NCBI GenBank assembly: GCA_049968235.1
Contig: JBMFRC010000006.1
Location: 64,001-128,000, forward strand
DNA: 64,000 bases
Origin: Candidatus Hydrogenedens sp.
GTDB lineage: Bacteria; Hydrogenedentota; Hydrogenedentia; Hydrogenedentales; Hydrogenedentaceae
Direction: 5' to 3'
This document shows, one piece after another, positions 1,721 through 58,870 of this stretch. The position numbers and the translations under genes were made by a program. Under the pieces are notes generated by a model that made no database searches, was not told the DNA's origin, and saw only the letters and a list, made by a program, of their open reading frames with translations. Every line of letters begins with the position of its first letter. Within the stretch, counting starts at the first letter, position 1.

Positions 1721-1818
1721 TTTTCCCCTTCAGAATGTTTCATTTTTCTAAATCTATTGTATAAAAAAAAACAGAGCAACTCTCCTTTTTTTTTTTTTTA
1801 TTAAACAGACTTTCCTTA

Positions 1819-4085: not shown

Positions 4086-4103
4086 AGATACTGCCTCCTG
4101 AAA

Positions 4104-4652: not shown

Positions 4653-4671
4653 AACTCCATTCCTTTCCTGT

Positions 4672-5388
4672 TTATAATTTCACTTTTTTTGTTTCTATTT
4701 CTGAACCAATCGGCTTCTTGTCGTAAGGTCTCTTTCCAACAGGTGTTAAATACCCTTGCCTCTTCACTACAAGGCACCCCGTAGGACAAACAGACATTGC
4801 TTTATCATCTTTTGTCAAATTGGTATCTTTCAATCCATCGTTGGAGTTTACCGAAATTCGCATGTTAATTCCTCGATTTTCAAAACCAAACACATTTTTC
4901 TTGTCCAGATGTATAGATGCTCTTACACAACGACCACATAAAACACAGCGATTCCTATCTAAATAGACATCGGGATGAGTTGCATCGAGTTCTTTTTGAG
5001 CATATAAATAAGGCATCTGTGGAGTTAATAATCCGAGACGATATGCTAAAGCCTGTAATTCACATTTTCCAGCAACCTCACATGAAGGACAGAAATGATT
5101 CCCTTCCACGAATAACATTTCAATAATGTTCCTGCGGAAACCATTCAATTCTTCCGTATTATTTTCTACAACAATCCCTTCAGCAACAGGATATGTACAG
5201 GAATTAACAGGTCTTCCATTTACTTTTACTGTGCAAACTCGACAATGACCACCCGGAGGAAGGTCTTTAAGATAGCACAATCTCGGAATATATATCCCTG
5301 CATCATCTGCAGCTTGAATTATCGTTTTATCCGGAGCAGATTTTACTTCAACTCCATCAATTGTAAAAGTAACTACATTTGTACTCAT
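4672..5388 (-). CDS. hoxU: Diaphorase subunit HoxU (NuoG-like 2Fe-2S/4Fe-4S ferredoxin)
   Basis: 238 aa. N-terminal 2Fe-2S ferredoxin fold (CRVCTVKVNGRP...C) followed by the HFCPSCEVAGKCELQ and CVLCGRCVRA cluster motifs typical of the NuoG N-terminus and HoxU. Confidence 0.85.
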   Translation of the reverse strand: MSTNVVTFTIDGVEVKSAPDKTIIQAADDAGIYIPRLCYLKDLPPGGHCRVCTVKVNGRPVNSCTYPVAEGIVVENNTEELNGFRRNIIEMLFVEGNHFCPSCEVAGKCELQALAYRLGLLTPQMPYLYAQKELDATHPDVYLDRNRCVLCGRCVRASIHLDKKNVFGFENRGINMRISVNSNDGLKDTNLTKDDKAMSVCPTGCLVVKRQGYLTPVGKRPYDKKPIGSEIETKKVKL

Positions 5389-7160
5389 TATTTTACTCCT
5401 TCCATTGTTCTTCCACTTGCTTCTATACCAATTTTCATAGCTTTTTGCAAATCAAAGGTTAATAATTTACCATCTTCTTCTTTGATTCTTTCTGCATATA
5501 AATCTGCAAAATCATAAATAGTTGTTAATACAGGATTTGCAGATGTTTGCCCTAGTCCACAACGACTCATGGATTTTACCGTTTGCGCTATTCTCCGCAA
5601 TTCAGCAAGGCTTTGGGCAGTGCCTTTACCATCCAGTATCTGTCTAAATTTCTTTTCAAGTAGTGTGGTTCCAGCCCTACATGGGACACACCAACCACAA
5701 GATTCTTCGATAAAAAACTCTATAAACTGATGCATACACTCTAATAAATCTCTATTTTTACCAAAAATCATGATAGAACCACCGGTTGGAAGGTCCTCAA
5801 ATGAAATTCGTCTACCAAAATCCTTGGGGGCTACACACTTTCCAGAAGCACCGCCTACTTGAACTGCCTGTGTATCTTTGGCACCTACCAGTTCTAACAG
5901 ATTCTCTATTGTTATTCCATACTCAACCTCATATACTCCTGGATGCTCACAATCACCGGAAACACTTAACATTTTTGTTCCTGTTGAGTCTTTTGTTCCA
6001 ATCTTCGCAAACCATTCTCCGCCCTTTTCTAATATACGAGCAGCACAACATAGCGTTTCCACGTTATTTACAGATGTGGGTTCGCTTTTATATCCTTTCT
6101 GAACAGGGAACGGTGGTCTATCGCGAGGAGCGCCTCTTTTCCCTTCTGCCGACTCAATAAGTGCAGATTCTTCACCACACACATAAGCACCTGCACCCAA
6201 TTGAATTCGAATATCAAAACTAAAATCTTCTCTACCACAAATATGTTCACCTAATAAACCCAAATGTCTTCTTTTTGCTAAAACCTTTTCAAGATTATCT
6301 AATAAATAAGCATATTCTCCACGAAGATACATTATACCTTCTTTAGCACCGATGGCATACCCTGCAATAGTCATGCCTTCAAAAACCAGGTCAGGATACT
6401 CTGTCAATATAACGCGGTCTTTAAATGTTCCGGGTTCCCCTTCATCTGCATTACATATAAGATAACGAATGGGTGATTTTTGCTTTCTACAAAAATCCCA
6501 CTTCATTGCTGTAGGAAAGCCGGCTCCTCCTCTTCCACGAAGCCTTGACTTATTTATTTCTGCAATAACATCTTCAGGTTTCATATTTAACGCATTTCGG
6601 ATTGCCTGTCCGTTCTCTAATGGGGCACATATAACTTCCCCTTCTTTTTTCAAATTCAACAAAACTCGTGCTTGTGGCAAATCAGAAATATCCTTACCTG
6701 CTTTAATATCACTTATAATTTTAGGAACATCCGCAGGTTTAAGATTTGTAAACGGTATATTGTTTATTAGTGCACCTGGAGCCTGGTCACTTAGACCGAT
6801 ACATGAGGTATGAAGCAAAGTAAACAAGTTATCCTTTGTAGTTTCACCAAAGGATATACCTAATTCCTTTTCAAAGGCTTTCCCTACTTCATCAGCCCCT
6901 TTCATTCTTTCTATAACTGCATTAGCAAGTCTTATTACATTCTTCCCAAGAGGTTTTCTTGGTAAAAAAGAATAAAAACTGACCATATCCCGAACCTGTA
7001 CCATAGGCATGTTCAGGACCTCTGCAACATGTGCGGCCATCTCATCCGAAATATAGCCGAATTCTTTAACAATATCGTGGGCTATATTCATCAGATAACC
7101 GCAGTCATTGCCATATTTATTGGCAATGTTTTTGATTTGTTCTCGGTAATGGTGGGTCAT
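5388..7160 (-). CDS. hoxF: Diaphorase subunit HoxF (NuoE-like N-terminus fused to NuoF-like NAD(P)H/FMN/4Fe-4S domain)
   Basis: GAGAYVCGEESALIESAEGKRG FMN/NADH-binding signature of NuoF. ESCGWCVPCR 4Fe-4S motif. N-terminal thioredoxin-like NuoE-like region. AGGAG RBS upstream. 1-nt overlap with hoxU start. Confidence 0.85.
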   Translation of the reverse strand: MTHHYREQIKNIANKYGNDCGYLMNIAHDIVKEFGYISDEMAAHVAEVLNMPMVQVRDMVSFYSFLPRKPLGKNVIRLANAVIERMKGADEVGKAFEKELGISFGETTKDNLFTLLHTSCIGLSDQAPGALINNIPFTNLKPADVPKIISDIKAGKDISDLPQARVLLNLKKEGEVICAPLENGQAIRNALNMKPEDVIAEINKSRLRGRGGAGFPTAMKWDFCRKQKSPIRYLICNADEGEPGTFKDRVILTEYPDLVFEGMTIAGYAIGAKEGIMYLRGEYAYLLDNLEKVLAKRRHLGLLGEHICGREDFSFDIRIQLGAGAYVCGEESALIESAEGKRGAPRDRPPFPVQKGYKSEPTSVNNVETLCCAARILEKGGEWFAKIGTKDSTGTKMLSVSGDCEHPGVYEVEYGITIENLLELVGAKDTQAVQVGGASGKCVAPKDFGRRISFEDLPTGGSIMIFGKNRDLLECMHQFIEFFIEESCGWCVPCRAGTTLLEKKFRQILDGKGTAQSLAELRRIAQTVKSMSRCGLGQTSANPVLTTIYDFADLYAERIKEEDGKLLTFDLQKAMKIGIEASGRTMEGVK

Positions 7161-30323: not shown

Positions 30324-33300
30324 ATGGGTAAATACAAGAATATGGTTGCACAATTATTATTCATTCTTTCAATTACTTTAACATCTTATTGCTTTTCACA
30401 GGATAATTTGAAAAATACTTCTTATTTAGAAAATTATTTTTTCCATTCTGAACAGAACAACCATTATTTTGCTTTTTCAAAAAATCAATACTTTGAAATT
30501 ACACCGGGTAGTCTAAAAATATGGATATGGAATCCTATAAAAAATGCCTTTTGTGAACCTGTAGAAATTTGTTTTCTTAACAATGAGAGTAATGCTGTCC
30601 TGGGAAGTGAAAAATCTGATGTAACATACAGTTATTATTCAGGAAATAATCCGGATAATTGGATACATAATAATTTTGCCTATAAGAAATTATGTATTCC
30701 CAACATTTACAAAGGAATTGACCTTGAATTTTACTTTAATAATCATGAGTTAGAGTTTGATTTCATCATTAACTCTCAAACAGATACTAATCAAATCCTT
30801 TGGAGAATCTGTGGGAATAATGTTGAATCACATATTGAAAACAATCAATTAGTTATTACAAATAACGAAGGCTATACATACACTTTTAGCATTCCAGAAA
30901 TATACAAATCCGCAATTAAAAATCCTGCGAGTATTCTTTCACATAATGTTTCTTTTTTAGATTTAGATGGGAATACATACCAAATCTATGTTGATATTCA
31001 TGATAGAAATTCCGAATTGCTTATAGACCCAATACTTACATTATCAACATATATAATTTTTCCGTCATCCAACTGGCCTTCTTCGCTATTTACCAAAATG
31101 TGTTTAGACTACTATAACAATATTGAGGATATTGCTTTAATAGGGGGAGCCATTGAATTTCCCGGTTCTTCTGGAACGGATGTATCAGGATTTTTATGTA
31201 AATTATCCCCACAATTAGGGAAAACACATCATATTGTTTTTATAAATGGAATGGGTGAAGATTATATAAATTTCGTTACTCATTTTATAAATATGATGAA
31301 TGAATTTATCGTTATAGGTGGGAAAACAAATTCTCTTAACTTTCCGACTGTTAACCCAGTCCAACCTTTAAATAGCATTCTGAACAGAAATGGAACATCT
31401 GGTGAATTTGATGGTTTTCTTATGATGTTTGACAAAGACCTAAGGATAACTTTTTCTACTTTTGTCGGTGGGAGTGGATATGACTCTATTGAAGATATTA
31501 ACATTAACACCAATAATTTATTTTTTGCAGGGAATACAAATTCTACTGATTTACCTCTGGTAAATTCTTCATTAAAAACTCAAAAAGGACTACTTGCAGA
31601 TGGTTTCTGGGGTATACTGAAACTTACGGACCCATTGGAGTGTCGATATATAACAAAATTAGGCATAGATGGCATTGAAATCAAGGATATTGAATCATAT
31701 TCAACAATTATATATCTTTGTGGAAATACAAGCGTAGGTTTACCGTATTTTAACCCAATAGTCCCGGAAACACCTGTTCAAGGGCAGGACATCTTTATTC
31801 AAACTTATTCATATTCTGAAGGCACAACAATCCCTGATATTAGTTTATTATCTTCTTTATTCTTAGGCGGTTCGGATAATGATATATTGGAAAAATCTAT
31901 TCTTCTGAATACAAATACCCTTTGTTTGGCAGGGAATACATATTCAAATGATTTGCCAGAACCTGTCATTTCGACAATACCTGAAAAAATACCTGAAAAA
32001 ACTTATCCTTTTCTTATATTAGTTAATCCAACAGTAACTCAAAAATTAATAGGTACTCACTATATCTTTGGTAATGGAACCGATATAATAACTGATATAA
32101 AAACACCTAGTACCGATTCAAGCACATTTTTCATTGTAGGTTATACCAATAGTTATTTTGAAAATTTTAATTGGAATAACACCGAATTTACTTCCAATCC
32201 GTTTGATACCTCGCTCAATAATGGGGCAAATGAAAACTTTGATGCAATGGTATGGAGACTTCAATGGAACAGCATAGAAAATACAATCACGCCTACATGG
32301 GGAACATTTTTAGGGGGAACTTTAAATGATACAGCATTGTCCATAGGTACTGTTGATAGTAATCACATTTGCTTTTCGGGTATAACAAATTCTCCTGATT
32401 TCCCATTACAGGGGTGTCAAACTATAGCACCAGCATATTTACCAAGCCATTATTTATCTGCTTTTAATATATCGGGTAAAGTTATATATGTAAATCCTGA
32501 CAGTTCTGTTGATCCCACTGATGGCAGTTCATGGGAAAAAGGTTACCATACTATTTCAGAAGCCATTAGTTCTGCTAACAACTATGATGAAATATGGATA
32601 AAATCTGGATATTACAATGAAAGGCTTACAATTAATGGATTTTCAAATCTTATCTTGCGAGGTGGTTTTTCAGGTTTAGAAACGAATATAGATGAAATAA
32701 ATCCATGGGAAAATCCAACAAAGATTTCCCCTATACAGGTAAAAGGAACGGGAAACTTAGGAACACCCACCTTAAATATTACATCGTGCATGAATATTGT
32801 ATTAAATGGACTTGTTTTTGAAAGTGGAACTAATATACTTGGTGATGGTGGAGCCATAAATATTTCTAATTCCACTGTTCGTATCCTATGTTCTCAATTT
32901 TACAAAAACAATTCAAATGGGAACGGTGGGGCTATCTATATTAATAATTCGTATGCAAACATCGCAAACTGTGTATTTGTTCAGAATTCTTGTTCAGGAA
33001 ACGGTTCGGGTATTTCTGCTAACGAATCTACAGTTAAAATTATACATTGCACATTTGCTAACAATTTTAATTCCGTTAGCGAAGATGTTAGCACTGTAGA
33101 CATTCAAGGTTCTACATCTATGCTAATGATACTCAACTCTATAATCTGGGCTAATGAGGGAAATACTCATGTTCAGATAAATTATCCTGAAATTATTCCT
33201 CCTGTAAATCTTCTATTCAGCCATTCAATTATCCAAAATTTCAGTTTATTATCTACACCACCATCACCCAATACCGTACTTGATACTAACCCTCTATTTA

Positions 33301-35957
33301 TTGAGAACCCGTCCGAAACAACACCTGGCGACTTAAATTTAAATCTGGAATCACCAGCGGTAAATCTTGCTGACCCAATCTCACTTACAATAGAATACGG
33401 TGCTGTTAATGAAGATATTCGTCGCAAACCGCGAATATTTATGGGAGAGAGTTGTAAACCTGATGCAGGAGCCTTCGAAATATTTCCTGCTCCCACACCT
33501 GTAATCACACTCTTGGGCGATAATCCCTTATATTTAACTATAAATAATCCCTACATTGAACCTGGATATGTATCTAAAGATGGATGTGATGTTGATATAA
33601 CATTTTTAGTAGATGTTACTTCCAATGTAAATACAGAACAGACAGGAGAATACACTGTAGAGTATTCGGTAATAAGTCCGTATGACCAGGGACAGATAAT
33701 AAAAGCAATCCGGAGAGTTATAGTCATCACTGCTTCATCGCAAATCATCCTTAACGGACCATCCGATGTGGTAATAGAATGTGGAAACTTTTTTATTGAC
33801 CCCGGTGCAGTAGCATTTGATTTATTGGGGAATAATATTTCCAATGAAATTATTGTTACGGATAATGTTGATTATTCAACTCCTGGAACATATACCATAG
33901 AATATAGTGTAACAGAGACAGAAAGCCATCCTGCCCTTCATGCTGTAAGAAATATAACGGTTCAGGATACAACTCCCCCAATACTTATTCTAATAGGTCC
34001 TCCGCAGATTACCATTCCTTGTGGTTCAACATGGTCTGACCCGGGATACATTGCATTTGACCAATGTTCACTTAATAATGTGCAGGTAAATGTAACAGGT
34101 AGTGTAAACACTTCTGCCACTGGAACCTATACGATTACTTACACTGCCTATGATGAGAACGAACATACATCCACTCTCACAAGAAAAGTCGTTGTTGATT
34201 GCAATATTCCTCAATTACAACAATGCCAGAATCAATGTTCTAATGATACTTCTCCTGTAGATAACGATGGAGATGGTCTATCATTTTGTATAGAGACTTG
34301 TTTGGGGACATCCGACCAGGATATAGATAGCGATGATGATAGTATGCCGGATTATTTTGAAGCAACATATAACTTAAATCCACTATTTAATGATGCGAAG
34401 GAAGATGCAGATTTAGATGGATTATCAAATCTTGAAGAATTTCTTACAAAGACCAATCCTATTGATTCCAATTCTCCATGGGAAGCCCATTATGTATCTA
34501 ATTCTGGCGATGACGATAATCCCGGGACATTGCAGTCCCCTCGTGCTACTATAACAACTACTCTTGGCAATATTAATACAAATCAAAATAAACAATCCTC
34601 TATTGTGCTGTTTCCAGGGAATTATTATGAAGATATTGTTTTATCAGAAAATATTGTTTTAATTGGAATCACAGCCTACGGTGAAAATAACAGACCTGTT
34701 ATCTACGGAAAAATTACGGGGGCTAATGGAGCAAAAATTTATAATGTTGATATAAAATCCAGTACAACCTCACCTGCAATAATTCCTGTTAAAGCCGAAG
34801 TTGAGAAGCCCATACTTCTGAATTGTGGTAATACTTCCATGCATATACGAAATGTCCGCTTTTTAGGTACAGGTTCGGAGATAGGTATATCTGTAGAAGG
34901 TGGAAATTGCTATAACACCATTATAGAGAGATGCCTCTTCCAGGATTTAAGTATTGGAATTCTAATAGGTGATAGTATCCCTGTTATCAGGAGATGCATT
35001 TTTAAATCATCACTTTCAACAAAAACTGATTCAACAGGTATTTATATTGAAGATAATTCAGGAAGTTACAATCCATCCAATTCTTTAGGTGATGTTAATG
35101 ACCCCAATACAGGTTGGAATACATTTAATCTTAATGGAGGAAAAGCGATAGTATGTAAAAGAGCCGAGGAGATTAAGGCTCATAACAATGACTGGGGAAC
35201 AGAGGATAGTGGAGAAATTTTAAATCAAGTTGAAGGAAATTTAGATACCCAATATTATCTGGGGAAAGGTAAAGCCATGATTGCTTCTTCACTTGCATGT
35301 GTTGTGTGGAATGCCAATAACAGAGACCCTATCATCAACGCCACGGTAGCAATAAATCCTTCTGTCTATCCACCATTAACACAAAATACAAAAGGCGTTT
35401 ATACTTTCTCATCCATTCCATCAGGGACCTATACCATAACAATATCTGCCCCTAATTTTTTAACACGACAGATTAATACAAATATACCTGAAGGAGATTT
35501 AAAATCTGAATCTGTAGCATTAAAACCTGTTGAAGGTGAAGGAACGGCTGATGGAGAAGGAACTACCGAAGGAATTCAAGAAGGTTCTACGGAAGGAACA
35601 ACTGAAGGTGAAAAAGAAATATTAATTCCTGATGTAAGAGGAATGTCTGTAGAGGAAGCAACTCAAGTATTAAATTCTGCAGGACTTCGTGTTTCAAATA
35701 CTATAAAAGAAGAATATAACCAGGAAGTTTCCAGAGGGAAAGTTACTCGAACGGAACCAGCAATCGGGACAAAAGTAGTCCAAAATACAGAAATAACTCT
35801 GGTAGTTAGTAAGGGGGCAAAAAGAAGATTTATTATTTCCTGTGGTCCTAATTACAATAGAAACTCGTATTGGGGCGATATAATCATTTGTATCTTTGCA
35901 TCCACCTTGCTTTTGTACAATCGTCCAGGAAAAGTATCTATAAATAAGAACAAATAA
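30324..35957 (+). CDS. Giant (1877 aa) multidomain surface protein: SBBP repeats, right-handed beta-helix, 3x DUF5011 Ig-like, TSP3-type Ca-binding repeats, second beta-helix, CarboxypepD_reg-like, EG-repeat linker, C-terminal PASTA domain + hydrophobic tail
   Basis: Signal peptide. SBBP repeats (NTNSLNFPT.., NTNSTDLPL..). Beta-helix repeats (GGAINISNSTVRI, GGAIYINNSYANI, NGSGISANESTVKI). DUF5011-like units (PVITLLGDNP...GEYTVEYSV, GTYTIEYSVTE, GTYTITYTAYDE). DNDGDGLS/DIDSDDDSMPD/DADLDGLSN Ca-binding loops. PASTA (IPDVRGMSVEEATQVLNSAGL...TEITLVVSKG). Confidence 0.75.
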   Translation: MGKYKNMVAQLLFILSITLTSYCFSQDNLKNTSYLENYFFHSEQNNHYFAFSKNQYFEITPGSLKIWIWNPIKNAFCEPVEICFLNNESNAVLGSEKSDVTYSYYSGNNPDNWIHNNFAYKKLCIPNIYKGIDLEFYFNNHELEFDFIINSQTDTNQILWRICGNNVESHIENNQLVITNNEGYTYTFSIPEIYKSAIKNPASILSHNVSFLDLDGNTYQIYVDIHDRNSELLIDPILTLSTYIIFPSSNWPSSLFTKMCLDYYNNIEDIALIGGAIEFPGSSGTDVSGFLCKLSPQLGKTHHIVFINGMGEDYINFVTHFINMMNEFIVIGGKTNSLNFPTVNPVQPLNSILNRNGTSGEFDGFLMMFDKDLRITFSTFVGGSGYDSIEDININTNNLFFAGNTNSTDLPLVNSSLKTQKGLLADGFWGILKLTDPLECRYITKLGIDGIEIKDIESYSTIIYLCGNTSVGLPYFNPIVPETPVQGQDIFIQTYSYSEGTTIPDISLLSSLFLGGSDNDILEKSILLNTNTLCLAGNTYSNDLPEPVISTIPEKIPEKTYPFLILVNPTVTQKLIGTHYIFGNGTDIITDIKTPSTDSSTFFIVGYTNSYFENFNWNNTEFTSNPFDTSLNNGANENFDAMVWRLQWNSIENTITPTWGTFLGGTLNDTALSIGTVDSNHICFSGITNSPDFPLQGCQTIAPAYLPSHYLSAFNISGKVIYVNPDSSVDPTDGSSWEKGYHTISEAISSANNYDEIWIKSGYYNERLTINGFSNLILRGGFSGLETNIDEINPWENPTKISPIQVKGTGNLGTPTLNITSCMNIVLNGLVFESGTNILGDGGAINISNSTVRILCSQFYKNNSNGNGGAIYINNSYANIANCVFVQNSCSGNGSGISANESTVKIIHCTFANNFNSVSEDVSTVDIQGSTSMLMILNSIIWANEGNTHVQINYPEIIPPVNLLFSHSIIQNFSLLSTPPSPNTVLDTNPLFIENPSETTPGDLNLNLESPAVNLADPISLTIEYGAVNEDIRRKPRIFMGESCKPDAGAFEIFPAPTPVITLLGDNPLYLTINNPYIEPGYVSKDGCDVDITFLVDVTSNVNTEQTGEYTVEYSVISPYDQGQIIKAIRRVIVITASSQIILNGPSDVVIECGNFFIDPGAVAFDLLGNNISNEIIVTDNVDYSTPGTYTIEYSVTETESHPALHAVRNITVQDTTPPILILIGPPQITIPCGSTWSDPGYIAFDQCSLNNVQVNVTGSVNTSATGTYTITYTAYDENEHTSTLTRKVVVDCNIPQLQQCQNQCSNDTSPVDNDGDGLSFCIETCLGTSDQDIDSDDDSMPDYFEATYNLNPLFNDAKEDADLDGLSNLEEFLTKTNPIDSNSPWEAHYVSNSGDDDNPGTLQSPRATITTTLGNINTNQNKQSSIVLFPGNYYEDIVLSENIVLIGITAYGENNRPVIYGKITGANGAKIYNVDIKSSTTSPAIIPVKAEVEKPILLNCGNTSMHIRNVRFLGTGSEIGISVEGGNCYNTIIERCLFQDLSIGILIGDSIPVIRRCIFKSSLSTKTDSTGIYIEDNSGSYNPSNSLGDVNDPNTGWNTFNLNGGKAIVCKRAEEIKAHNNDWGTEDSGEILNQVEGNLDTQYYLGKGKAMIASSLACVVWNANNRDPIINATVAINPSVYPPLTQNTKGVYTFSSIPSGTYTITISAPNFLTRQINTNIPEGDLKSESVALKPVEGEGTADGEGTTEGIQEGSTEGTTEGEKEILIPDVRGMSVEEATQVLNSAGLRVSNTIKEEYNQEVSRGKVTRTEPAIGTKVVQNTEITLVVSKGAKRRFIISCGPNYNRNSYWGDIIICIFASTLLLYNRPGKVSINKNK
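35530..35612 (+). repeat. 12-nt tandem coding repeat (xEGx)n, block 3
   Basis: Encodes VEGEGTADGEGTTEGIQEGSTEGTTEGE. Same gaagg 12-mer periodicity as in the 14315..17698 gene. Confidence 0.6.
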
Positions 35958-48726: not shown

Positions 48727-50238
48727 ATGATTGATACATTATTATTGAAAACATATATCACTATTCTTTCAGTCTTATCTAAGAATAAAGATAATCTATC
48801 CGAAAATTTCATTTCGCTTAACGATTTTTTACATCTTTTTTCTCAACCCAAACTCAACCTCATAAATACGAAAGACTTCTTACAACAGGTAGAAGAGTGT
48901 TTTAATCTTCACATAGAAACTGGAAATAAGCTACATTCTGTTCATTTGAATATTGATAAAATGATTGTATTAAATTGTCTGTCTATCTTTAATAAACTTA
49001 TCGGTAAAAATATTTTTTCTATTTATTATGAGGAAACACAAGAAGGTGGTTTTCTCATTCCGAATCTCACTTTGTTTTCATCGAATAATCTGGAGCAATT
49101 GTCAAATTTTATCTTGGTTAATAATTTTTTACCTTTAAATACTTCATTCATTAATACACAGTGGACTAAAATCACAAATGGTGGAAAAATACAAATCAAA
49201 CAAAATCAAATTATATTCAAGCTTGCTGGTTTTAAATTACCAGCCAGGAACAATCCTTTATGTGAATTTGCCCCTGAATTTTCTTCTGCATTAGAAGAAG
49301 AAATCGAAAGTCTCATCTCTAATTATATATCCTCATGGGATTTTAATAAGATAATTGATATTCATGTATTTTTCAATTCTATATGGGAATATTTAAGACC
49401 GTTTATAACTAATCCTAATAAAATAGAGATTAGAATAGATAAACCTATCCCTATACTAAAGATATCGGAACTCAGTTTATCTTCAATACTTCTTTGTAAT
49501 ATTTCTCCATTTATCATTTTGCATAACCTTCTAACAGGGATATTCAGTATTAGTTATGAGACAAAAGGGAAAAACTTTATGGTCGAAACAGTAATAAGAA
49601 CGGAGAAACCTTTTGAATATCCTTTAATTGCCCAAAGGGCAATTAAATATTTCGTGGAACAAATAAAAGGAAGTCTAACCATTGAAAGTAAACAAATAAA
49701 AAATGATTGTATATTTACAACTACACTTTCTATTCCCGACAATATCGGCATTTTTTTAGATACCGAATTACATGGTTGGGAGTGTCTAACAGCAGAAAGT
49801 CAGGATATTTTACGACGATTGAGTTATGAATGTTCAATACCTTATGAACATCCATTTATTTCAGAACTTATTCGATTTGAAATAGAAAATTATTTTCGTG
49901 AACTTTTCTCAAAGCCTCTATTTATCAATCTTTCCCATGAATTATTGGAGAGAAACAAGCGTTATATCAGTCATACTATAAAATCTATGTTAGAGGAAAT
50001 AGAAAAAGGAAAAATCAAAAAGAATTCTTTTAATCCTTTATCCATAGGACAAATAATGGATGCCTTTTTAAGTTTACCTGACGTAGAAAATAGATTTCGT
50101 AAAATTTTTAATACAGATACAGTCAATATGACACATTTATTAGAATTATCGAAAACATTAAAAGAATTCCCCCACTCCAGCAAATCATTGATTTCTATAT
50201 TAATTTTCTTTATACAAAATACAAAGAAGTCCAATTAA
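48727..50238 (+). CDS. Hypothetical protein (503 aa), no recognisable domain
   Basis: Long ATG-initiated ORF with coding-like periodicity. Convergent with the hfs-like operon. Confidence 0.5.
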   Translation: MIDTLLLKTYITILSVLSKNKDNLSENFISLNDFLHLFSQPKLNLINTKDFLQQVEECFNLHIETGNKLHSVHLNIDKMIVLNCLSIFNKLIGKNIFSIYYEETQEGGFLIPNLTLFSSNNLEQLSNFILVNNFLPLNTSFINTQWTKITNGGKIQIKQNQIIFKLAGFKLPARNNPLCEFAPEFSSALEEEIESLISNYISSWDFNKIIDIHVFFNSIWEYLRPFITNPNKIEIRIDKPIPILKISELSLSSILLCNISPFIILHNLLTGIFSISYETKGKNFMVETVIRTEKPFEYPLIAQRAIKYFVEQIKGSLTIESKQIKNDCIFTTTLSIPDNIGIFLDTELHGWECLTAESQDILRRLSYECSIPYEHPFISELIRFEIENYFRELFSKPLFINLSHELLERNKRYISHTIKSMLEEIEKGKIKKNSFNPLSIGQIMDAFLSLPDVENRFRKIFNTDTVNMTHLLELSKTLKEFPHSSKSLISILIFFIQNTKKSN

Positions 50239-50244
50239 TAGCTT

Positions 50245-50784
50245 CTAAACTTTTAATGTTTTGATAATGTTATTTATTTCATTCTCTATTAACTTATATA
50301 TCTCTATATCATTCATATTCGAGAATCTTTCTCTACATTCTCCCGTGTGAATTGATAAAAGTGTGTGTGTATTGTGGATAATATAAATTTGCATATTAAT
50401 ATTGGGATTCGTAATAAACATTCCGGCAATGGAATTCCCTAAATCTCCTACTGGCATCCTGTCAATATTTGATAACACAAAAGTCAACGCAACCCTGGCA
50501 CCTCCTAAATCTTCACTTTTACCAATTACAACATCGCCACCGGCTCTTTCTGCTGAACCTTTAGCCAAACTTAATCCCATTCCCACTATTTTTGATTTTT
50601 TTGTTGTATAAAATGGGTCAAACAACTGTTCTTCATCAACGCTAAAACCTTTTCCATTATCTTCAATTATCAGGGTAAGCAAATCAGTTTCCTCATTTAT
50701 ATCCAACAAAATTCGTATCTCATTTGCACCTGCATTAATTGAATTTTCTATCAAATCAAGGATATGTAAAGAGAGTTCAATCAA
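50245..50784 (-). CDS. GHKL-type ATPase (anti-sigma regulatory factor / Ser-kinase-like, HfsD-like)
   Basis: HATPase_c boxes: N (ENSINAGA), G1 (EDNGKGF), G2 (GMGLSLAKG). No HisKA domain. Last gene of a 5-gene overlapping operon. Confidence 0.7.
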   Translation of the reverse strand: MIELSLHILDLIENSINAGANEIRILLDINEETDLLTLIIEDNGKGFSVDEEQLFDPFYTTKKSKIVGMGLSLAKGSAERAGGDVVIGKSEDLGGARVALTFVLSNIDRMPVGDLGNSIAGMFITNPNINMQIYIIHNTHTLLSIHTGECRERFSNMNDIEIYKLIENEINNIIKTLKV

Positions 50785-51547
50785 TTTCTATGACCTCCAA
50801 AACAGTATTTGTCCTTATTCCTTTTTTTATACCGTCAAAAGTGAGACTATCCACGCATATTTCTGTTCGAACATGCCCAATTTCATCTATAGAATGTGCA
50901 TCTGAAGAAGTAATTACCGGAAGATTTTGAGGTAGTGAATATATGATACTTTTTAAAAGAAACTCTTTCTTTTCGATAACCCTTTTTACTGATATAGGTG
51001 ATATTTCTAACACATCAAACACATTGTCAGGAATAATACCCAGCTGGCTTGTAATAGAAAAAGAAGGGCGGTCAACATGACTGGCAATAATCATTGCGTT
51101 ATATTTTCTTAATAATGCAATTACATTTTCTAAATTCATACCCGATGATAAATACAGCGATTTTTCTTCTTCTCCTATAACTTCTCCTTTTGAATTAATA
51201 ATTAGCTGAGGTTCTAAAAAGTCTTTCTTGTTTAACTCTTCACTTAAAGTTTCTCTTATAATTTTTCCAACCGACTCTGCATCTTCTAAATCGGGAAATA
51301 TCCCTAAAACATGTACTTCTTCTTCAGTTGTAATCTCTATTCCTGGAAGAAATAATATCTGTGGGAACCAATTCTGTCCATATTCATAAAATGCCCGCAC
51401 ATTCCTCGTGCTATTGTGATCACATATAGCAAATGCATTTATCCCTTTTTTTATTAAGCGTGGATATATATTCTGGGGTAGCATCATTCGGTCTGCACAT
51501 GGGGATAAAACAGAATGAATATGTAAGTCAGAAAATAATATGGACAA
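50777..51547 (-). CDS. PHP-domain phosphoesterase (HfsC-like)
   Basis: DLHIHSVLS...AICDHN...HV PHP metal-ligand motifs. 8-nt overlap with downstream GHKL gene. Confidence 0.8.
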   Translation of the reverse strand: MSILFSDLHIHSVLSPCADRMMLPQNIYPRLIKKGINAFAICDHNSTRNVRAFYEYGQNWFPQILFLPGIEITTEEEVHVLGIFPDLEDAESVGKIIRETLSEELNKKDFLEPQLIINSKGEVIGEEEKSLYLSSGMNLENVIALLRKYNAMIIASHVDRPSFSITSQLGIIPDNVFDVLEISPISVKRVIEKKEFLLKSIIYSLPQNLPVITSSDAHSIDEIGHVRTEICVDSLTFDGIKKGIRTNTVLEVIEID

Positions 51548-51551
51548 AACA

Positions 51552-51902
51552 CTACCCTCTTATACCCAACTCATACAATTTTCCAACAATATTAAATGCA
51601 GTATCGGAAGATGAAAATAATAATATTTTTTCTTGTTCTGCTTTCTTCATGACATTATCATCGGGATGGCGGTTTTGTATAAAAATGACTGCAGAAATTT
51701 CTGCATGGACACATACCGCTATTACATTGATATGTGTCTGTAAAGTAATTAGAATAGAGCCTTTTTTCGCATTTGCTAAAACATCACTCAGTAAATCCGA
51801 TACATACCCTTCACTAACTTCTCTATCTAATAAGTCAGCAATTTCAGGAGTAAGTAATTCCAATTGTAATTCCTCATAAATTTCTTTTAATTTCTTACTC
51901 AT
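51552..51902 (-). CDS. DRTGG-like domain protein
   Basis: 116 aa. Same fold signature as 53496..53840 (V.DLLSDVL..A..GSILIT.QTHINVIAV....ISAVIF). Confidence 0.6.
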   Translation of the reverse strand: MSKKLKEIYEELQLELLTPEIADLLDREVSEGYVSDLLSDVLANAKKGSILITLQTHINVIAVCVHAEISAVIFIQNRHPDDNVMKKAEQEKILLFSSSDTAFNIVGKLYELGIRG

Positions 51903-51918
51903 ACATTTATCTCCATTT

Positions 51919-53499
51919 TTACATTCTATTCAAATATGGGCAGTTGTTTATATCTTTCTTCATTATTACAATGTCTTCTGCAAAATTCAAGCATGCGGGT
52001 GCTCCACAAACTCCACAATCATAGCCGGGTAATTTTTTATTTATTTTTTCTATCTCACTAAGTTTCTGAATCGCTATTCTTACATCCTCATCAAGTCGCA
52101 CACCTTTCCGTGAATTGATAGTGGATACACGGTATATTGCATCTATTTTTTGATTTTCATATTTATGCTTCTGTTCATTCCAGAATGAATCAAAAATTAT
52201 TTTTGACATGGTGGGTTCTTCACCCCAATATGGAGAGCCAAAACAGCCATTATAGCAAGCATACAATTCCACCATTTTTATAGGGACAGGTAATTGTTTC
52301 TTTTCTATATTTTCTAAAAACGTTTTTACCTGCTCTATTCCAGATATTGTTACTATGCCATCATTGCTATTTTTGTCAATATTTATATTGTGTATTTTAT
52401 CTTTTTGTTTTTTCTTATTTGTTTCTTTATATATATCCATTATCATTTCAAATGATTTCTGGGGAGAAATCATTTGAATAGAAATATCTAAATTTTTATT
52501 GTTATTAACTGCGGATATCTGAGCAGGACAAGAAGGTATAAAAAAGATATTTCGTCTTTCAGCGAAACTACTTATCGCTGTTTCTATAGGTCCCAAATAG
52601 GGAGCAATATTATCAATCAATGAAGGATATTCCGTTTGTATCCAGTATAGGACTGCGGGACAAACGGGTAATATTAAAGGGAAATTAATTTTTTCATTGT
52701 TCTCAATATATTTTTGTGTTTCTTTTTGTAATACTTCCTCCCATAATACTAATGGAAATACTTCCAATCCTTTTCTGTGGAATTTTTCTTCGAACTCATC
52801 CCATGAATAATAAAGTAGAATAGAAGCAATCCATGGTGAGGGGGCGATAAGTATTCCCTGCTTTTCCTTTTCATGATTTTTCTCGCAATCCTCCAAATCA
52901 AATACTTTCGTAGGACATATCTTTATACATTCATTACAATTGATGCAATGGTGAGACAAAATATACAAGTTTTTTTCATACAGTCTTATGGCTTTTGTGG
53001 GACATCTTGATAGACATTGCAAACATTTTTTACATTTCTCTGCCGTTACATGAACATAACTATCAACTTTTGAAAAATCTTTGTCTGACTTTACAAATAT
53101 AAGTATTTTTAACAAAGTGCCTGTGGGCTCGCTATGTATAACAAAGTAGTCTGAATTTTTCCTTATGTTAGGTAAACCCATTCCTGCTCCGAAACCCATT
53201 TCTCTTGCTTCGTCGGGTGCAGTAGAGTACCCTTCCTGAACAGCAAGGTCAATTCGGGGAATACCGGGTCCTGTATCCTTAACTACAATCTCAATTTTTT
53301 CATCATCTATTGTAAAATTAATTTCTCCTCCATAAGAATGGATAATAACATTCATCTCCGACTCATAAACGGCAATCATAATCTTTCGGATTATTTCGGG
53401 GGCTATTGCCAACTTACTTAATATTTCTTTAATTTTTGAAGAAACCTGTCCGCCACCTAAATAATCTCCTTTTTTTACTGGATATGAACCTGTAATCAT
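51919..53499 (-). CDS. Fusion protein: GHKL Ser-kinase-like ATPase + 2x[4Fe-4S] ferredoxin + degenerate [FeFe]-hydrogenase H-cluster-like domain (HfsB-like sensory hydrogenase homolog)
   Basis: N-terminal HATPase_c (DTGPGIP, GAGMGLPN). CKKCLQCLSRCP and CINCNECIKICP ferredoxin motifs. Then PVCPAVLYW (compare TSCCPxW), IPSCPAQ (compare MPCxxK), ELYACYNGCFGSP (compare ExMACxxGCxxGG). C-terminal CGVCGAPAC. Confidence 0.75.
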   Translation of the reverse strand: MITGSYPVKKGDYLGGGQVSSKIKEILSKLAIAPEIIRKIMIAVYESEMNVIIHSYGGEINFTIDDEKIEIVVKDTGPGIPRIDLAVQEGYSTAPDEAREMGFGAGMGLPNIRKNSDYFVIHSEPTGTLLKILIFVKSDKDFSKVDSYVHVTAEKCKKCLQCLSRCPTKAIRLYEKNLYILSHHCINCNECIKICPTKVFDLEDCEKNHEKEKQGILIAPSPWIASILLYYSWDEFEEKFHRKGLEVFPLVLWEEVLQKETQKYIENNEKINFPLILPVCPAVLYWIQTEYPSLIDNIAPYLGPIETAISSFAERRNIFFIPSCPAQISAVNNNKNLDISIQMISPQKSFEMIMDIYKETNKKKQKDKIHNINIDKNSNDGIVTISGIEQVKTFLENIEKKQLPVPIKMVELYACYNGCFGSPYWGEEPTMSKIIFDSFWNEQKHKYENQKIDAIYRVSTINSRKGVRLDEDVRIAIQKLSEIEKINKKLPGYDCGVCGAPACLNFAEDIVIMKKDINNCPYLNRM

Positions 53500-53840
53500 T
53501 GTTGTATTTTTCCCTTTTCAAATATTCCATAAATGACACCACAGGTTTCATACATCTCTAAGGAAGATACTAAAAGAAAGGCTTTATTTTCTTCCGCACT
53601 TTCTATCAACTCATGGATAGGTTCTGAGTCTGTAATAAGACATATAGCAGGAACATCAAATATATTAAACAACTGAACTAGAGAGATATGATTTAAGTGT
53701 GTAATTATCAATGTGTTTTCGCTGGCTGAATGAATTAAATCACTAATTCGGTCCCCTGCAAAAACTTTCCCTATTTCTGTTTTTTCCCCTTTAACAACAA
53801 CCTCTATACCTAATACCTTTATAATATCCTGTATATCCAC
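53496..53840 (-). CDS. DRTGG domain protein (HfsA-like)
   Basis: 114 aa. GDRISDLI...LIITHL..ISLV....DVPAICL pattern of the DRTGG domain. 4-nt overlap with the fusion gene. Confidence 0.65.
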   Translation of the reverse strand: MDIQDIIKVLGIEVVVKGEKTEIGKVFAGDRISDLIHSASENTLIITHLNHISLVQLFNIFDVPAICLITDSEPIHELIESAEENKAFLLVSSLEMYETCGVIYGIFEKGKIQQ

Positions 53841-53907: not shown

Positions 53908-55431
53908 TTACTGTTCTTCTTCAGATTCCTTATCCTCTTTATTATTTCTTCCTGTTATTTTCATCTTTTCTAAATACTCATCTAAAGTAAGCCCACTTTC
54001 TCGGATTTTTTCAATATATTTAGATACTGCTTCAAAATAAGTAAAATCACATTTTCTTAGTCCTTCTTTAATCTCGTCTGTATTATTTCCTTCATTTCTT
54101 TCCAAAGAGCGTAGCAGTCGATTTTCAAATTCCATTTTTGAGAGCACTACTTTATATGTTTTATCTGCCACTAAATCTGTTTTTACTGCAACTTTATCTG
54201 GGGGGAACGACCTTTCATATTCTGCGTTTATTCCTGCCCATTCCGTTCTACTCCAGCCGTATTTAAGCAAATCAATTAAATATTGCTCAATTTGCTTTCC
54301 TGTCAATGTTATTTCGACCAGTTCTTTAGCGCGGTGTCCTGCTGTTAGATAGACAGCATTGTAATCTAATTTAGTGGGTGGAAATGTACTTCGAATAAGT
54401 AATCGCGGATGACAAAAGGCAATATCAGCATTGGCTCTTTCTTTAATTGCATTAGCACTTAATACTCCAATTTGACTTGTATTAATTAATTTTCTGTTAT
54501 CTATCAAAAACTCTGATGCGATTGGACATATCTTCTTCTCTTCTGCTGATACCCAATTTAAAATTCCTTCATCAGGTTTTATAATATCATGTTTCATTTC
54601 CACTACCTGGTTCGTATATCTACTAATCTTTTGCTTCTCATTATCTATCACCAATTTTAAATGCCCCGCATACATAGCATAGGAACCCGCCTGAACGATG
54701 ATTGCATTTGTATCTTCACACTGCCTTGCTTCCTTCAATAACTCGTGAGTATGTCCGGAAATAAACACAGAAATTTCAGGGATTTTTTTAGATATTTCTG
54801 CACAGGCGTTACTTCCAAGATGGCATAGTGCAATAATGAAATGACAACCTTGTTTTTTTAATTCATCAATCGCTTTTTTTAGTTCGGGAACAGATTCTCT
54901 GGCAACTTTCATTTCTTCACCACCTAATTTCACAACACCGATAAAACCTATGGGTAAATTTCCCACTTTTTTTACAACCCACGGCTTATAACAATGTTCT
55001 AAACCTTCTTTATAATTTGTTCCTACAAATTCTACTGAAGGTGACAGTTCCCTTAACTTGCAAAGTCGTTCAATTCCTTTATCATAATCATGATTTCCGA
55101 TAACCATCACATCATATTTCATTTGCTCTATGATCTTATACATCATTTCTCCATCAGTTAAATCCGCAACCATGTCTCCTTTATCTGTCAAATCACCTGC
55201 ATCAAGCAACAATACATCTGGATTTTCTTCCCTTACATTATTTACAAATCCTGCAATATAGGGAATTCCTCCTACACCCAAATAACCCGGTCGTATATGG
55301 TCGTGAATATCATTTGTATAAACAATATTAACTTCTACATCTTCTGAAAATAAATTAAAAGAAACCAAAAACAGTAAAATTACACTCAAAAGTACCCTCA
55401 AATAATAATTTTTGTTATTCTTTGTCAACAT
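53908..55431 (-). CDS. Bifunctional metallophosphatase / 5'-nucleotidase (UshA-like), secreted
   Basis: Signal peptide. Calcineurin-like motifs (DIHDH, GDLTDKGD, GNHDYD, GHTHE). C-terminal 5'-nucleotidase substrate-binding domain. Confidence 0.8.
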   Translation of the reverse strand: MLTKNNKNYYLRVLLSVILLFLVSFNLFSEDVEVNIVYTNDIHDHIRPGYLGVGGIPYIAGFVNNVREENPDVLLLDAGDLTDKGDMVADLTDGEMMYKIIEQMKYDVMVIGNHDYDKGIERLCKLRELSPSVEFVGTNYKEGLEHCYKPWVVKKVGNLPIGFIGVVKLGGEEMKVARESVPELKKAIDELKKQGCHFIIALCHLGSNACAEISKKIPEISVFISGHTHELLKEARQCEDTNAIIVQAGSYAMYAGHLKLVIDNEKQKISRYTNQVVEMKHDIIKPDEGILNWVSAEEKKICPIASEFLIDNRKLINTSQIGVLSANAIKERANADIAFCHPRLLIRSTFPPTKLDYNAVYLTAGHRAKELVEITLTGKQIEQYLIDLLKYGWSRTEWAGINAEYERSFPPDKVAVKTDLVADKTYKVVLSKMEFENRLLRSLERNEGNNTDEIKEGLRKCDFTYFEAVSKYIEKIRESGLTLDEYLEKMKITGRNNKEDKESEEEQ

Positions 55432-58043: not shown

Positions 58044-58451
58044 ATGCCATTAATTCAATGGAACGATTCTTTAAGTGTCGGCATTCCTTCTATGGATACA
58101 CAACATCAAAAATTAATCAATATTATAAATCGACTACATGATGCTATGCGTGAAGGAAAAGGGAAAGATATTATATCCCCCGTATTAACGGAGTTACATA
58201 ATTATACCGTTACTCACTTTACAGCAGAAGAAAAATTAATGGAACAATGTAAATACAGTGGTCTTGCCGTTCAGAAACAACAACATAATAATTTTGTCAA
58301 TCAAATTAAAAAGTATCAGTCTGACTATGAAAAAGGTTCATTAACTCTTCCTCTTTCGGTTTCCAATTACTTAAAAGACTGGCTTATTAATCATATTCAG
58401 GGTCTGGATAAAAAATATGAGACATCTATGAAATCAGCAGGAATTAAATAG
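58044..58451 (+). CDS. Bacteriohemerythrin
   Basis: WNDSLSVGIPSMDTQHQKLI, HF..EE, WL.NHI..LDKKY His/Glu/Asp diiron ligand pattern. 135 aa. Confidence 0.85.
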   Translation: MPLIQWNDSLSVGIPSMDTQHQKLINIINRLHDAMREGKGKDIISPVLTELHNYTVTHFTAEEKLMEQCKYSGLAVQKQQHNNFVNQIKKYQSDYEKGSLTLPLSVSNYLKDWLINHIQGLDKKYETSMKSAGIK

Positions 58452-58462
58452 GAGAAATATCT

Positions 58463-58870
58463 ATGGCTTTTCTCAATTGGAACGATAATTTTAATATTGG
58501 AATATTTCAAATTGATGCTCAACATAAAAATCTGGTTAATATTATTAATCAGTTATATGAAGCGATGAGTGTAGGGAAAGGAAAAGAAATTATTGGGAAA
58601 ATTGTAAAAGAATTGGCGGGTTATACAATTACTCATTTTGGCACTGAAGAGAAACTCATGCAGGAACATGGCTATCCTGAATTGCCTCAACATAAAAAAG
58701 AACATGAACTTTTTGTTAAAAAAGTTCAGGAATTTAATAATGAAATTCAAAAAGGGAATCTTATCATTGTTTCTAATGTTGCCAATTTCTTGAAGGAATG
58801 GTTGATAAAACATATTCAAGGAACCGATAAGAAATATGGTCCATTTTTAAAGGGAAAAGGGGTAAAATAG
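58463..58870 (+). CDS. Bacteriohemerythrin (tandem paralog)
   Basis: WNDNFNIGIFQIDAQHKNLV.., HF.TEEKLM, WLIKHIQGTDKKY. 135 aa. 11 nt after the first copy. Confidence 0.85.
   Translation: MAFLNWNDNFNIGIFQIDAQHKNLVNIINQLYEAMSVGKGKEIIGKIVKELAGYTITHFGTEEKLMQEHGYPELPQHKKEHELFVKKVQEFNNEIQKGNLIIVSNVANFLKEWLIKHIQGTDKKYGPFLKGKGVK

Follow-up and report, generated by a model that had tools for sequence, protein, structure and literature searches.

The window analysed here, a stretch of 64,000 nucleotides (nt) from Candidatus Hydrogenedens sp. (contig JBMFRC010000006.1, positions 64,001 to 128,000), encodes on its minus strand a 526-amino-acid (aa) fusion protein composed of four parts, i.e., a SpoIIAB-like HATPase, a 2x[4Fe–4S] ferredoxin, a shortened [FeFe]-hydrogenase H-domain, and a C-terminal Cx2Cx4Cx16C domain of the type found in RnfB and the corrinoid iron–sulfur (FeS) protein (CFeSP). 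In a reading to which we give roughly even chances, this protein may act as a redox-gated signalling kinase in a module with DRTGG partners and a PHP-family enzyme that resets the system. The protein and its parts are placed as follows.

51919..53499, minus strand: fusion protein MGC8738211.1 (HATPase_c_2, 2x Fer4, shortened H-domain, PF04060 FeS)
53095..53499, minus strand: SpoIIAB/RsbW-like GHKL ATP-binding domain, residues 1–135 (Pfam, alignment to SpoIIAB 1TIL, Foldseek)
52885..53058, minus strand: 2x[4Fe–4S] ferredoxin (F-cluster-like) domain, residues 148–205 (Pfam Fer4, profile search)
52210..52872, minus strand: shortened H-domain, residues 210–430 (Pfam Fe_hyd_lg_C, profile alignments to HydA)
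51934..52032, minus strand: PF04060 'FeS' domain, residues 490–522 (Pfam FeS, NCBIfam, PDB matches)

The open reading frame (ORF) was called on the minus strand with an ATG start, and a plus-strand reading of 51919–53499 was rejected, its translation being riddled with stops. The minus-strand translation holds every motif that a first-pass annotation of this DNA had quoted (DTGPGIP, GAGMGLPN, CKKCLQCLSRCP, CINCNECIKICP, PVCPAV, IPSCPAQ, ELYACYNGCFGSP, and CGVCGAPAC). It is identical to NCBI entry MGC8738211.1 from a Candidatus Hydrogenedens sp. metagenome-assembled genome, where it is automatically annotated as a '[Fe-Fe] hydrogenase large subunit C-terminal domain-containing protein', and its four neighbours fall in MGC8738208–MGC8738212. 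Conservation was counted over 42 homologues with 32–81% identity to the window protein, and the motif residues are invariant across them (near-invariant in the case of C159 and C419), showing that the motifs have not arisen by chance. An AlphaFold2 model built with these 42 homologues as input is confident (pLDDT 87.9, pTM 0.88). Using this model, Foldseek returned [FeFe]-hydrogenases for all of the top 38 PDB matches (E ~1e-11 to 1e-9, probability 1.0), with DdH, CbA5H, CpI, and the HydA subunit of HydABC among the best, and it also matched SpoIIAB to the N-terminal domain. The model, the Pfam and profile alignments, and the alignment to SpoIIAB thus bear out the claim that a GHKL kinase, a ferredoxin, and an H-domain lie on a single polypeptide. 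The fusion is not a novel architecture: a study of Hydrogenedentota (PMC11406978, mSystems 2024) reports group C1 genes bearing HATPase_C in this very phylum, HydDB already lists [FeFe] group C1 as 'histidine kinase-linked (putative)' (PMC5037454), and the protein itself is in the databases.

The N-terminal domain was identified by Pfam as HATPase_c_2 at residues 19–132 (34.1 bits, cut-off 27.4; HATPase_c, 36.6 bits). It possesses an N-box (E46/N50/H54), a G1 box (D75-G77-G79), and a G2 box (G102-G104-G106-G108), and all ten of these residues are invariant in 42/42 homologues, so that the G1/G2 boxes of an RsbW/SpoIIAB-type kinase noticed in the first-pass annotation are indeed present. In a residue alignment to SpoIIAB 1TIL, E46, N50, and H54 fall on identical numbers, DTGPGIP...STAP pairs with DEGVGIP...TTKP, and the G2 box GAGMGL pairs with SGMGF, while the Foldseek match to 1til_E reached a TM-score of 0.80 on the target with a root-mean-square deviation of 2.9 Å. 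The predicted Bergerat ATP-binding fold is therefore not broken but has its N, G1, and G2 boxes intact. Ser/Thr phosphotransfer is the putative activity of this domain, as judged from its subfamily; many homologues carry the JGI name 'anti-sigma regulatory factor (Ser/Thr protein kinase)', and the NCBIfam model spIIAB (TIGR01925) gave 46.4 bits, under its equivalog cut-off of 135. Three close homologues of the kinase-like domain (P0195, P0238, and P0249; 50–56% identity) carry an N-terminal CBS domain or CBS pair rather than an FeS sensor, suggesting that the kinase output domain has apparently been reused with a nucleotide-sensing input.

Following the kinase-like domain, Pfam places two Fer4 motifs at residues 151–199, in agreement with the two CxxCxxCxxxCP motifs seen earlier. 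Their cysteines are 156/159/162/166 and 185/188/191/195, seven of the eight being invariant (C159 is Ser in a few homologues), and a profile search shows this domain to be collinear with the F-domain of DdH and CpI. The next domain is more diverged. A single-sequence PDB search was swamped by ferredoxin matches, and the H-domain was excised and a profile built for residue-level alignments. The profile of residues 205–445 matched [FeFe]-hydrogenases only (E down to 1e-8), besides two weak chance matches (E ~0.6), and Pfam recognises Fe_hyd_lg_C in two pieces at 43.7 bits against a cut-off of 22.1. The region is thus not unrelated to Fe_hyd_lg_C. NCBIfam gave only sub-threshold partial matches over the whole protein (spIIAB, RnfB, and group A/B [FeFe]-hydrogenase models).

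The profile alignment to solved HydA structures confirms the proposed collinearity with the P1, P2, and P3 signatures. At P1, TSCCPxW of HydA becomes sPvCPaV (LPVCPAV in the window); at P2, vMPCxxKK becomes vpsCPaQ (IPSCPAQ in the window); and at P3, vEvMaCxGGC becomes vELYaCxxGC (ELYACYNGCFGSP in the window, to be compared with ExMxCxxGCxxGGGxP). The motifs are encoded as follows, each placed by the profile alignment.

52660–52662, minus strand: codon of C280 in the P1-like motif PVC280PAV
52528–52530, minus strand: codon of C324 in the P2-like motif IPSC324PAQ
52255–52257 and 52243–52245, minus strand: codons of C415 and C419 in the P3-like motif ELYAC415YNGC419FGSP

Based on these alignments, C280, C324, C415, and C419 occupy the four ligand positions of the [4Fe–4S]H cubane, including that of the bridging Cys (C419). 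The first three are kept in 42/42 homologues and C419 in 40/42, and all 16 cluster cysteines of the protein are conserved, with the few exceptions given for C419 and C159. Compared with true HydA, a single Cys has been lost, the proton-relay Cys of P1, which is not a ligand. The 'reduced Cys content' of the first-pass annotation is accordingly correct for this one residue and overstated otherwise, because all four cubane ligands are Cys. Sensory HydS enzymes bind an H-cluster despite missing the P1 Cys, as verified by spectroscopy where tested. The loss of this Cys had been taken as a sign that the H-cluster may be missing or altered, and since the characterised HydS enzymes likewise do without it (PMC8924675), it is poor evidence on that point.

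The stronger sequence evidence for an altered H-cluster comes from elsewhere in the pocket, namely from the change of the P2 Lys to Gln, the change of the P3 Met to Tyr, and two deletions. In the clade of fused proteins, the Lys position of P2 is occupied by Gln in 35, Glu in 4, His in 2, and Arg in 1 of the 42 sequences and never by Lys, and the Met position of P3 is Tyr or Phe in 40/42. The spacing between P1 and P2 is 43 residues, compared with 55 in both true HydA and the related proteins whose kinase is encoded separately (split forms), and the spacing between P2 and P3 is 91, compared with 144 in 34 true HydA proteins of the same loci, which read MPCxAKKxE at P2. The H-domain is thus shorter than that of true HydA by ~12 residues between P1 and P2 and by ~53 residues between P2 and P3. 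At the relay position of P1, the fused clade has V/L/M/I/A and the split forms have A/F/Y/S, with Cys in neither. A C-terminal wrap resembling Fe_hyd_SSU was not detected in the fusion protein by Pfam. These substitutions and deletions suggest that the [2Fe] subcluster is probably absent from the fused-clade protein, and with the [2Fe] pocket dismantled, the protein probably senses redox state rather than H2. A pseudo-hydrogenase serving as a redox sensor, as first proposed, is therefore still the most likely reading.

No PAS domain was found by Pfam in the fusion protein, and its C-terminus is instead formed by PF04060 FeS at residues 490–522 (41.2 bits), with the cysteines spaced C495-x2-C498-x4-C503-x16-C520 and invariant in 42/42. 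The terminal CGVCGAPAC pointed out earlier is present but is not an isolated motif, being part of this domain. The region also gave partial NCBIfam matches of the RnfB and AcsC type and PDB matches to the CFeSP large subunit (4djd_C and 2h9a_A). Such a domain, known from the RnfB N-terminus and the corrinoid FeS protein, presumably binds a [4Fe–4S] cluster. The first-pass annotation had contrasted the fusion with sensory hydrogenases that carry a PAS domain and act through separate partners; this holds for the PAS-type members of group C, whereas in the C1 lineage a kinase-like gene is normally adjacent and is here fused.

Relatives of the protein are widespread, as a database search for the same architecture revealed. 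They occur in at least 584 species genomes (one genome per species was scanned). A word-indexed search gave 545 clusters at E <1e-5, the best 120 of which are all 513–578 aa long with the same Pfam set and 95–100% coverage, and an exhaustive search of 1.84 billion representatives gave 129 clusters at E <=1e-30 and 933 at E <=1e-10. For comparison of gene order, 80 loci from >10 phyla were fetched (numbered with the prefix L below). The one-ORF form is found in 16 of them, exclusively from Planctomycetota/Brocadiia, Phycisphaerae, Spirochaetota, Verrucomicrobiota, and Actinomycetota. In 63–64 of the 80 loci the protein is split into adjacent genes of ~140 aa (HATPase_c_2) and ~440 aa, the phyla including Bacillota, Bacteroidota, Synergistota, Atribacterota, Chlorobiota, Acidobacteriota, and others. 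When the shared region was placed in a neighbour-joining tree, all 17 fused sequences (those of the 16 loci and the window) fell on one side of a single branch and all 63 split sequences on the other, and the mean identity is 28% between the two groups and 43–46% within them. The fused form is therefore one monophyletic clade, and the protein is the fused version of a pair that most lineages keep separate. The single branch and the identity pattern fit one fusion event that was followed by spread across phyla. The pockets of the two forms compare as follows.

P1: SPVCP in the fused form, SSACP in the split form
P2: xSCPxQ in the fused form, TPCPAK in the split form (Lys in 62/63)
P3: ELYACxxGCFGSP in the fused form, ELxACxGGCxGG in the split form
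Pfam Fe_hyd_lg_C: 43.7 bits in two pieces in the fused form (window protein), 109.6 bits over the whole profile in the split form (Petrimonas, L030)

Judged by these motifs, the fused clade, a probable part of group C1, is its more degenerate branch. The assignment to C1 is indirect and is connected to the literature through Petrimonas mucosa, in which ING2E5A_0849, four genes upstream of HndABCD, was classed as C1 (PMC7768429). The layout around this gene matches locus L030, and residues ~148–524 of the window protein are homologous to the split L030 protein (phmmer 9e-39), with the gene order shared. In the Hydrogenedentota study, 53 group C1 genes were found among 179 genomes, of which 21 adjoin group A3 hydrogenase genes; the HATPase_C domain was noted on these proteins, their best HydDB C1 match being without it (PMC11406978). 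The authors could hardly find P1–P3 in these genes and doubted that they sense H2, and their supplement flags where group C genes lie near [NiFe]-hydrogenase genes (PMC11406978).

The gene of the fusion protein is the second of a five-gene module in the order DRTGGa, sensor-kinase, DRTGGb, PHP, and stand-alone HATPase. Essentially all 80 loci have the first four genes in this order, and the stand-alone HATPase was seen wherever the fetched locus reaches far enough. In the window, the module genes overlap or lie <=16 nt apart, and the partners of the sensor-kinase are the following.

53496..53840, minus strand: DRTGGa, 114 aa, first gene of the module, MGC8738212.1 ('hypothetical protein'; ORF, synteny)
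51552..51902, minus strand: DRTGGb, 116 aa, DRTGG/HprK-N-like, MGC8738210.1 ('serine kinase'; weak Pfam DRTGG and Hpr_kinase_N)
50777..51547, minus strand: PHP-family metal-dependent phosphoesterase, 256 aa, TTG start (Pfam PHP_C and PHP; conserved in the module)
50245..50784, minus strand: stand-alone histidine-kinase-type HATPase_c, 179 aa, with no HisKA/DHp, last gene of the module (Pfam, 53.8 bits)

The two small proteins of the window are weakly recognisable by sequence as DRTGG/HprK-N-like. The stop codon of DRTGGa overlaps the start codon of the sensor-kinase gene as ATGA. The window copy has no Pfam match; its orthologues (phmmer 1e-7 to 2e-25) take this place in about all 80 loci, and those fused to the kinase in L025 and L064 score as Pfam DRTGG. 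DRTGGb lies downstream of the sensor-kinase, again in about all 80 loci, and carries a conserved Y-x-x-D-L-L-S-x-V motif (D36, S39) together with T53, with D36, S39, and T53 invariant. As a single sequence it gave no PDB matches, and its profile matched the HprK/P N-domain 1ko7 (E 0.003), AF_1212 2ioj (E 0.008), and the CBS-PPase 3l2b (E 0.04), all weakly; the designed 'Pizza' propellers that topped the profile matches were discarded as repeat artefacts. For the PHP protein, NCBIfam gave partial matches to PHP domains (those of TrlF, of RNase RNM, and of nucleoside bisphosphate phosphatase), and the PDB gave weak ones to the 5'-3' exoribonuclease 7ug9 and the PHP phosphoesterase 9etk. The TrlF/Ppl-like matches raised a defence-system reading of this protein, which was rejected in view of weak, domain-level PADLOC matches and the synteny with hydrogenases. 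The stand-alone HATPase gene overlaps the PHP stop codon by 8 nt, and in Bacillota this gene is flanked by the NuoE-like and NuoF-like genes of HydABC. A promoter/terminator scan of the window found sites no more numerous than in shuffled sequences.

Natural fusions link most of these parts. Besides the kinase-sensor fusion of the clade that includes the window protein, there are DRTGG-kinase fusions (L025 and L064), a sensor-DRTGGb fusion (L051), a DRTGG-sensor fusion in which DRTGG is joined to the ferredoxin, H-domain, and FeS parts (P0215), and the three CBS-kinase fusions described above. In Actinomycetota, DRTGGa is fused to Rex (Put_DNA-bind_N and CoA_binding) in L008, L009, L016, L017, L051, and probably L010, the ORFs lying upstream of the sensor-kinase at the following positions.

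L008: 6872–7972
L009: 6910–7974
L016: 6822–7964
L017: 6877–7980
L051: 6896–7981

A separate rex gene overlaps the start of the DRTGG-kinase fusion gene in L025 and L064. The Rex-DRTGG fusions and this overlap suggest that DRTGG links the module to Rex, a repressor that senses NADH, and the DRTGG-kinase, DRTGG-sensor, Rex-DRTGG, and CBS-kinase fusions suggest that the parts work together.

On one side of the module or the other, a NuoE/NuoF/HydA set, indicating an electron-bifurcating hydrogenase of the HydABC type, was detected in roughly half of the 80 loci, and 33/34 HydA proteins of those loci have full P1/P2/P3 motifs. The true HydA proteins beside the module (~580–640 aa; L002, L004, L013, L018, L019, L040, L073, L080, and others) mostly read TSCSPGW at P1, with Ser at the second Cys position, in 8/8 printed examples, as does the solved A. 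woodii HydA1 (7q4v_A), and those of Bacteroidota carry the CC form. As a TSCCPxW regular expression matched Bacteroidota only, the HydA pattern was relaxed. Downstream of the fused module, the NuoF-like (HydB) gene encodes ~1017–1088 aa rather than ~597 aa in Planctomycetota, Spirochaetota, and Actinomycetota (L001, L002, L004, L007–L010, L013, and L016), starting ~4 kb downstream of the sensor-kinase gene. These long proteins evidently have a large extra domain and may represent one of the non-canonical Bfu sub-types discussed in PMC11406978.

In the window itself, a tblastn search with six true HydA proteins over the 64 kb found only the N-terminal FeS domains of HoxU, leaving the fusion protein with the sole H-domain. 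The genes of the Hox-type NAD-linked [NiFe]-hydrogenase operon lie on the minus strand.

284–7160, minus strand: Hox-type NAD-linked [NiFe]-hydrogenase operon
5388–7160, minus strand: NuoE+NuoF fusion
4672–5388, minus strand: HoxU-like protein
4104–4652, minus strand: small subunit
2640–4085, minus strand: large subunit, with a 170-aa ORF also in the operon
1819–2196, minus strand: response regulator, after the Hox genes
284–1720, minus strand: histidine kinase, after the Hox genes

The orphan layout, in which no [FeFe]-hydrogenase adjoins the module, is common to L081–L083. The conserved site comprises Metallophos, the module, a convergent ~500-aa gene, an M50 peptidase, a class I tRNA synthetase, ThiC, Dus, and an aldolase. 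The same chromosomal context is shared by relatives whose sensor-kinase is only 50% and 40% identical to that of the window, suggesting that the orphan module has been retained for a long time. Three features of this site are conserved in all of L081–L083. A secreted-looking metallophosphoesterase/5'-nucleotidase (Metallophos and 5_nucleotid_C; 53908–55431, minus strand) lies on the strand of the module, ~67 nt upstream of it, and might be co-transcribed with it. The gene convergent with the module end (48727–50238, plus strand) encodes a conserved protein of 498–503 aa with no Pfam match (L081:13316-14812, L082:11199-12695, and L083:13237-14748). Two tandem 135-aa ORFs follow at 58044–58451 and 58463–58870 (plus strand), of which the first is a hemerythrin (HHE cation-binding) gene ~4.5 kb from the module that is kept at the same position and has a possible O2- or redox-related function. 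Elsewhere in the window, a very large ORF of 1877 aa is found at 30324–35957 (plus strand).

In the proposed mechanism, the C-terminal two-thirds of the protein would hold up to four [4Fe–4S] clusters (two F-clusters, the former H-cluster cubane, and the PF04060 cluster) that serve as a redox input wire. The wire would equilibrate with the ferredoxin/H2/NADH pool, and its redox state would gate the ATP-dependent activity of the N-terminal domain, either binding or Ser/Thr phosphorylation. The likeliest partners would be the two DRTGG proteins, standing in for the STAS partner of SpoIIAB/RsbW, and the PHP enzyme would reset the system. As its output, the system would control the hydrogenase or redox metabolism, and in some lineages it may do so via Rex, as suggested by the fusion of DRTGG to Rex there. 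More tentatively, and with a probability that we place well below even, the module may represent a new kind of partner switching in which an FeS 'ex-hydrogenase' gates a SpoIIAB-like kinase, DRTGG proteins replace STAS partners, PHP provides the reset, and Rex or a hydrogenase receives the output; the fused form would then be a one-polypeptide sensor kinase of the ferredoxin/redox pool that does not bind H2.

Several observations weigh against the redox-gated kinase. The kinase activity, the substrate, the cluster content, and the redox partner are all properties that we infer, and literature searches found no experiment on any group C1 protein or on the module. The Gln that replaces the Lys could still form a hydrogen bond to a cyanide (CN) ligand and the bridging Cys is kept, so that the absence of the [2Fe] subcluster is probable rather than certain. 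The PHP protein resembles nucleotide/RNA phosphoesterases (RNase AM/RNM and pAp phosphatase) more than known protein phosphatases, which makes nucleotide signalling fit as well as or better than protein dephosphorylation and is a real weakness of the protein-phosphatase step. There is no HydABC in the window, the nearest hydrogenase being the Hox-type [NiFe] operon ~45 kb away, and no STAS protein, sigma factor, or Rex was found among the window ORFs scanned.

One rival reading is that of a true H2 sensor, in which the protein would be matured by HydEFG, hold a complete though unusual H-cluster, bind H2 slowly as HydS does, and signal directly to the fused kinase. The four H-cluster Cys ligands, including the bridging C419, are consistent with this reading, as are the P2 Lys of the split relatives, the strong tie of the family to hydrogenase operons, the missing relay Cys of known HydS (PMC8924675), and the classification of the family in the sensory group C (PMC5037454, PMC11406978). 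Maturases are also probably available in the phylum, since most Hydrogenedentota encode group A3 [FeFe]-hydrogenases (PMC11406978). However, the window ORFs scanned include no HydE, HydF, or HydG, the fused clade never has the P2 Lys, both Met residues flanking the [2Fe] site are replaced, and the H-domain has lost the ~12 and ~53 residues and the detectable Fe_hyd_SSU-like wrap mentioned above. In work by Knorzer et al. in 2012, replacement of the equivalent Lys in algal HydA1 reportedly abolished [2Fe] incorporation, which also counts against an H2 sensor. Together with the difficulty of finding P1–P3 and the doubts of the authors who met these genes in Hydrogenedentota (PMC11406978), these points lead us to regard an H2 sensor as unlikely.

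A non-signalling role has to be considered as well. The protein could be an accessory factor for NuoEF-type hydrogenases, either delivering and repairing FeS clusters or cofactors in an ATP-dependent manner, as an analogue of Nar1/NARFL, or acting as an auxiliary electron-transfer subunit. Its H-domain keeps the cubane ligands only, as Nar1-type proteins are generally known to do, chaperones occur among GHKL ATPases, and the PHP protein looks like a nucleotide phosphoesterase; the synteny with HydABC is tight, with the stand-alone HATPase lying between the hydC-like and hydB-like genes in Bacillota. On the other hand, the subfamily of the ATPase domain is specifically that of the SpoIIAB/RsbW signalling proteins, the nearest relatives of this domain are joined to CBS and DRTGG sensor/regulator domains, and DRTGG is in turn fused to the repressor Rex. 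The solved HydABC complexes, which were matched as HydA/HydB chains, show no such subunit, and HydABC has reportedly been produced actively without the module genes. Moreover, the module is kept without a hydrogenase within 10 kb in the window clade and for 32/53 Hydrogenedentota C1 genes (PMC11406978). An accessory role is thus improbable. A classical anti-sigma factor is in our judgement very improbable; on this reading, a sigma factor would be sequestered by the SpoIIAB-like domain and released in a redox-dependent way through the FeS domains. Both in structure and in sequence, the N-terminal domain is closest to SpoIIAB, and the JGI name of many homologues says as much, yet the module, the window ORFs scanned, and the conserved neighbours in the 80 loci include no sigma factor or STAS anti-anti-sigma gene. 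The spIIAB equivalog score (46 vs. 135 bits) argues in the same direction, and the partners that are conserved are instead of the DRTGG, PHP, and HATPase types.

In many anaerobes of guts, digesters, and sediments, the balance of H2 and redox state is set by electron-bifurcating hydrogenases. The C1 proteins and the DRTGG/PHP/HATPase genes are among those most consistently found beside them. The fused form provides Rosetta-stone evidence that a kinase-like ATPase and an FeS sensor act as one unit, and the further fusions point to concrete, testable partners. The value of the present analysis is a clear hypothesis for a very widespread module. Its additions are the fused and split clades, the differences between their pockets, the module, the orphan site, and the fusion network. 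Literature searches linking DRTGG, PHP, or serine kinase with hydrogenase, HydS with anti-sigma, and Fe_hyd_lg_C with HATPase found nothing.

Among known systems, the eukaryotic H-domain homologue Nar1 (NARFL/IOP1) keeps the cubane Cys, has no [2Fe] subcluster, and serves a non-catalytic role. Unlike the window protein, however, Nar1 is generally known as a cytosolic FeS-assembly factor without a kinase, an F-cluster pair, or a PF04060 domain. The SpoIIAB/RsbW partner-switching Ser kinases belong to the same GHKL subfamily as the N-terminal domain, with matching N, G1, and G2 boxes and a similar size (~135 aa), whereas the window domain is joined to an FeS sensor and flanked by DRTGG proteins, with no STAS or sigma gene nearby. 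The PAS-type sensory hydrogenases (TmHydS, TamHydS, RaHydS, and TsHfsB; group C3/D) likewise combine an F-cluster domain with an H-domain that is missing the proton-relay Cys. They have been proposed to inform partners of the Ser/Thr kinase/phosphatase kind about H2 or the redox state and to regulate hydrogenases and fermentation, and there is genetic evidence for a regulatory role of the related PAS-type HfsB/HydS (PMC8924675, PMC5707799). These proteins end in a PAS domain, whereas the window protein has a PF04060 domain and a fused kinase instead and is without the Lys and Met of the [2Fe] pocket. The hfsABCD operon, with an FeS protein, a PAS hydrogenase, an anti-sigma kinase, and a PP2C as its supposed products, was considered as a separate-gene analogue and dropped, as these domain assignments could not be confirmed in PMC5707799 and HfsD is group B according to the Morra review. 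The HoxBC sensor of Ralstonia eutropha and its histidine kinase HoxJ follow the same logic, i.e., a hydrogenase-derived sensor coupled to a GHKL kinase that controls hydrogenase genes (PMC5707799). However, HoxBC has a [NiFe] site, HoxJ is a two-component histidine kinase with a response regulator, and sensor and kinase are separate polypeptides. With group C1, the window protein shares its module, probably its lineage, and, in many genomes, the association with A3/HydABC hydrogenases, and the link to a histidine-kinase-like ATPase that defines this group is present twice, as the fused HATPase_c_2 and as the stand-alone HATPase_c three genes downstream. Compared with classic split C1 proteins, its module has no adjoining [FeFe]-hydrogenase, the P2 Lys is replaced by Gln, the P1–P2 segment has an extra ~12-residue deletion, the Pfam H-domain score falls from ~110 to 44 bits, and the kinase is fused to the sensor rather than encoded beside it.

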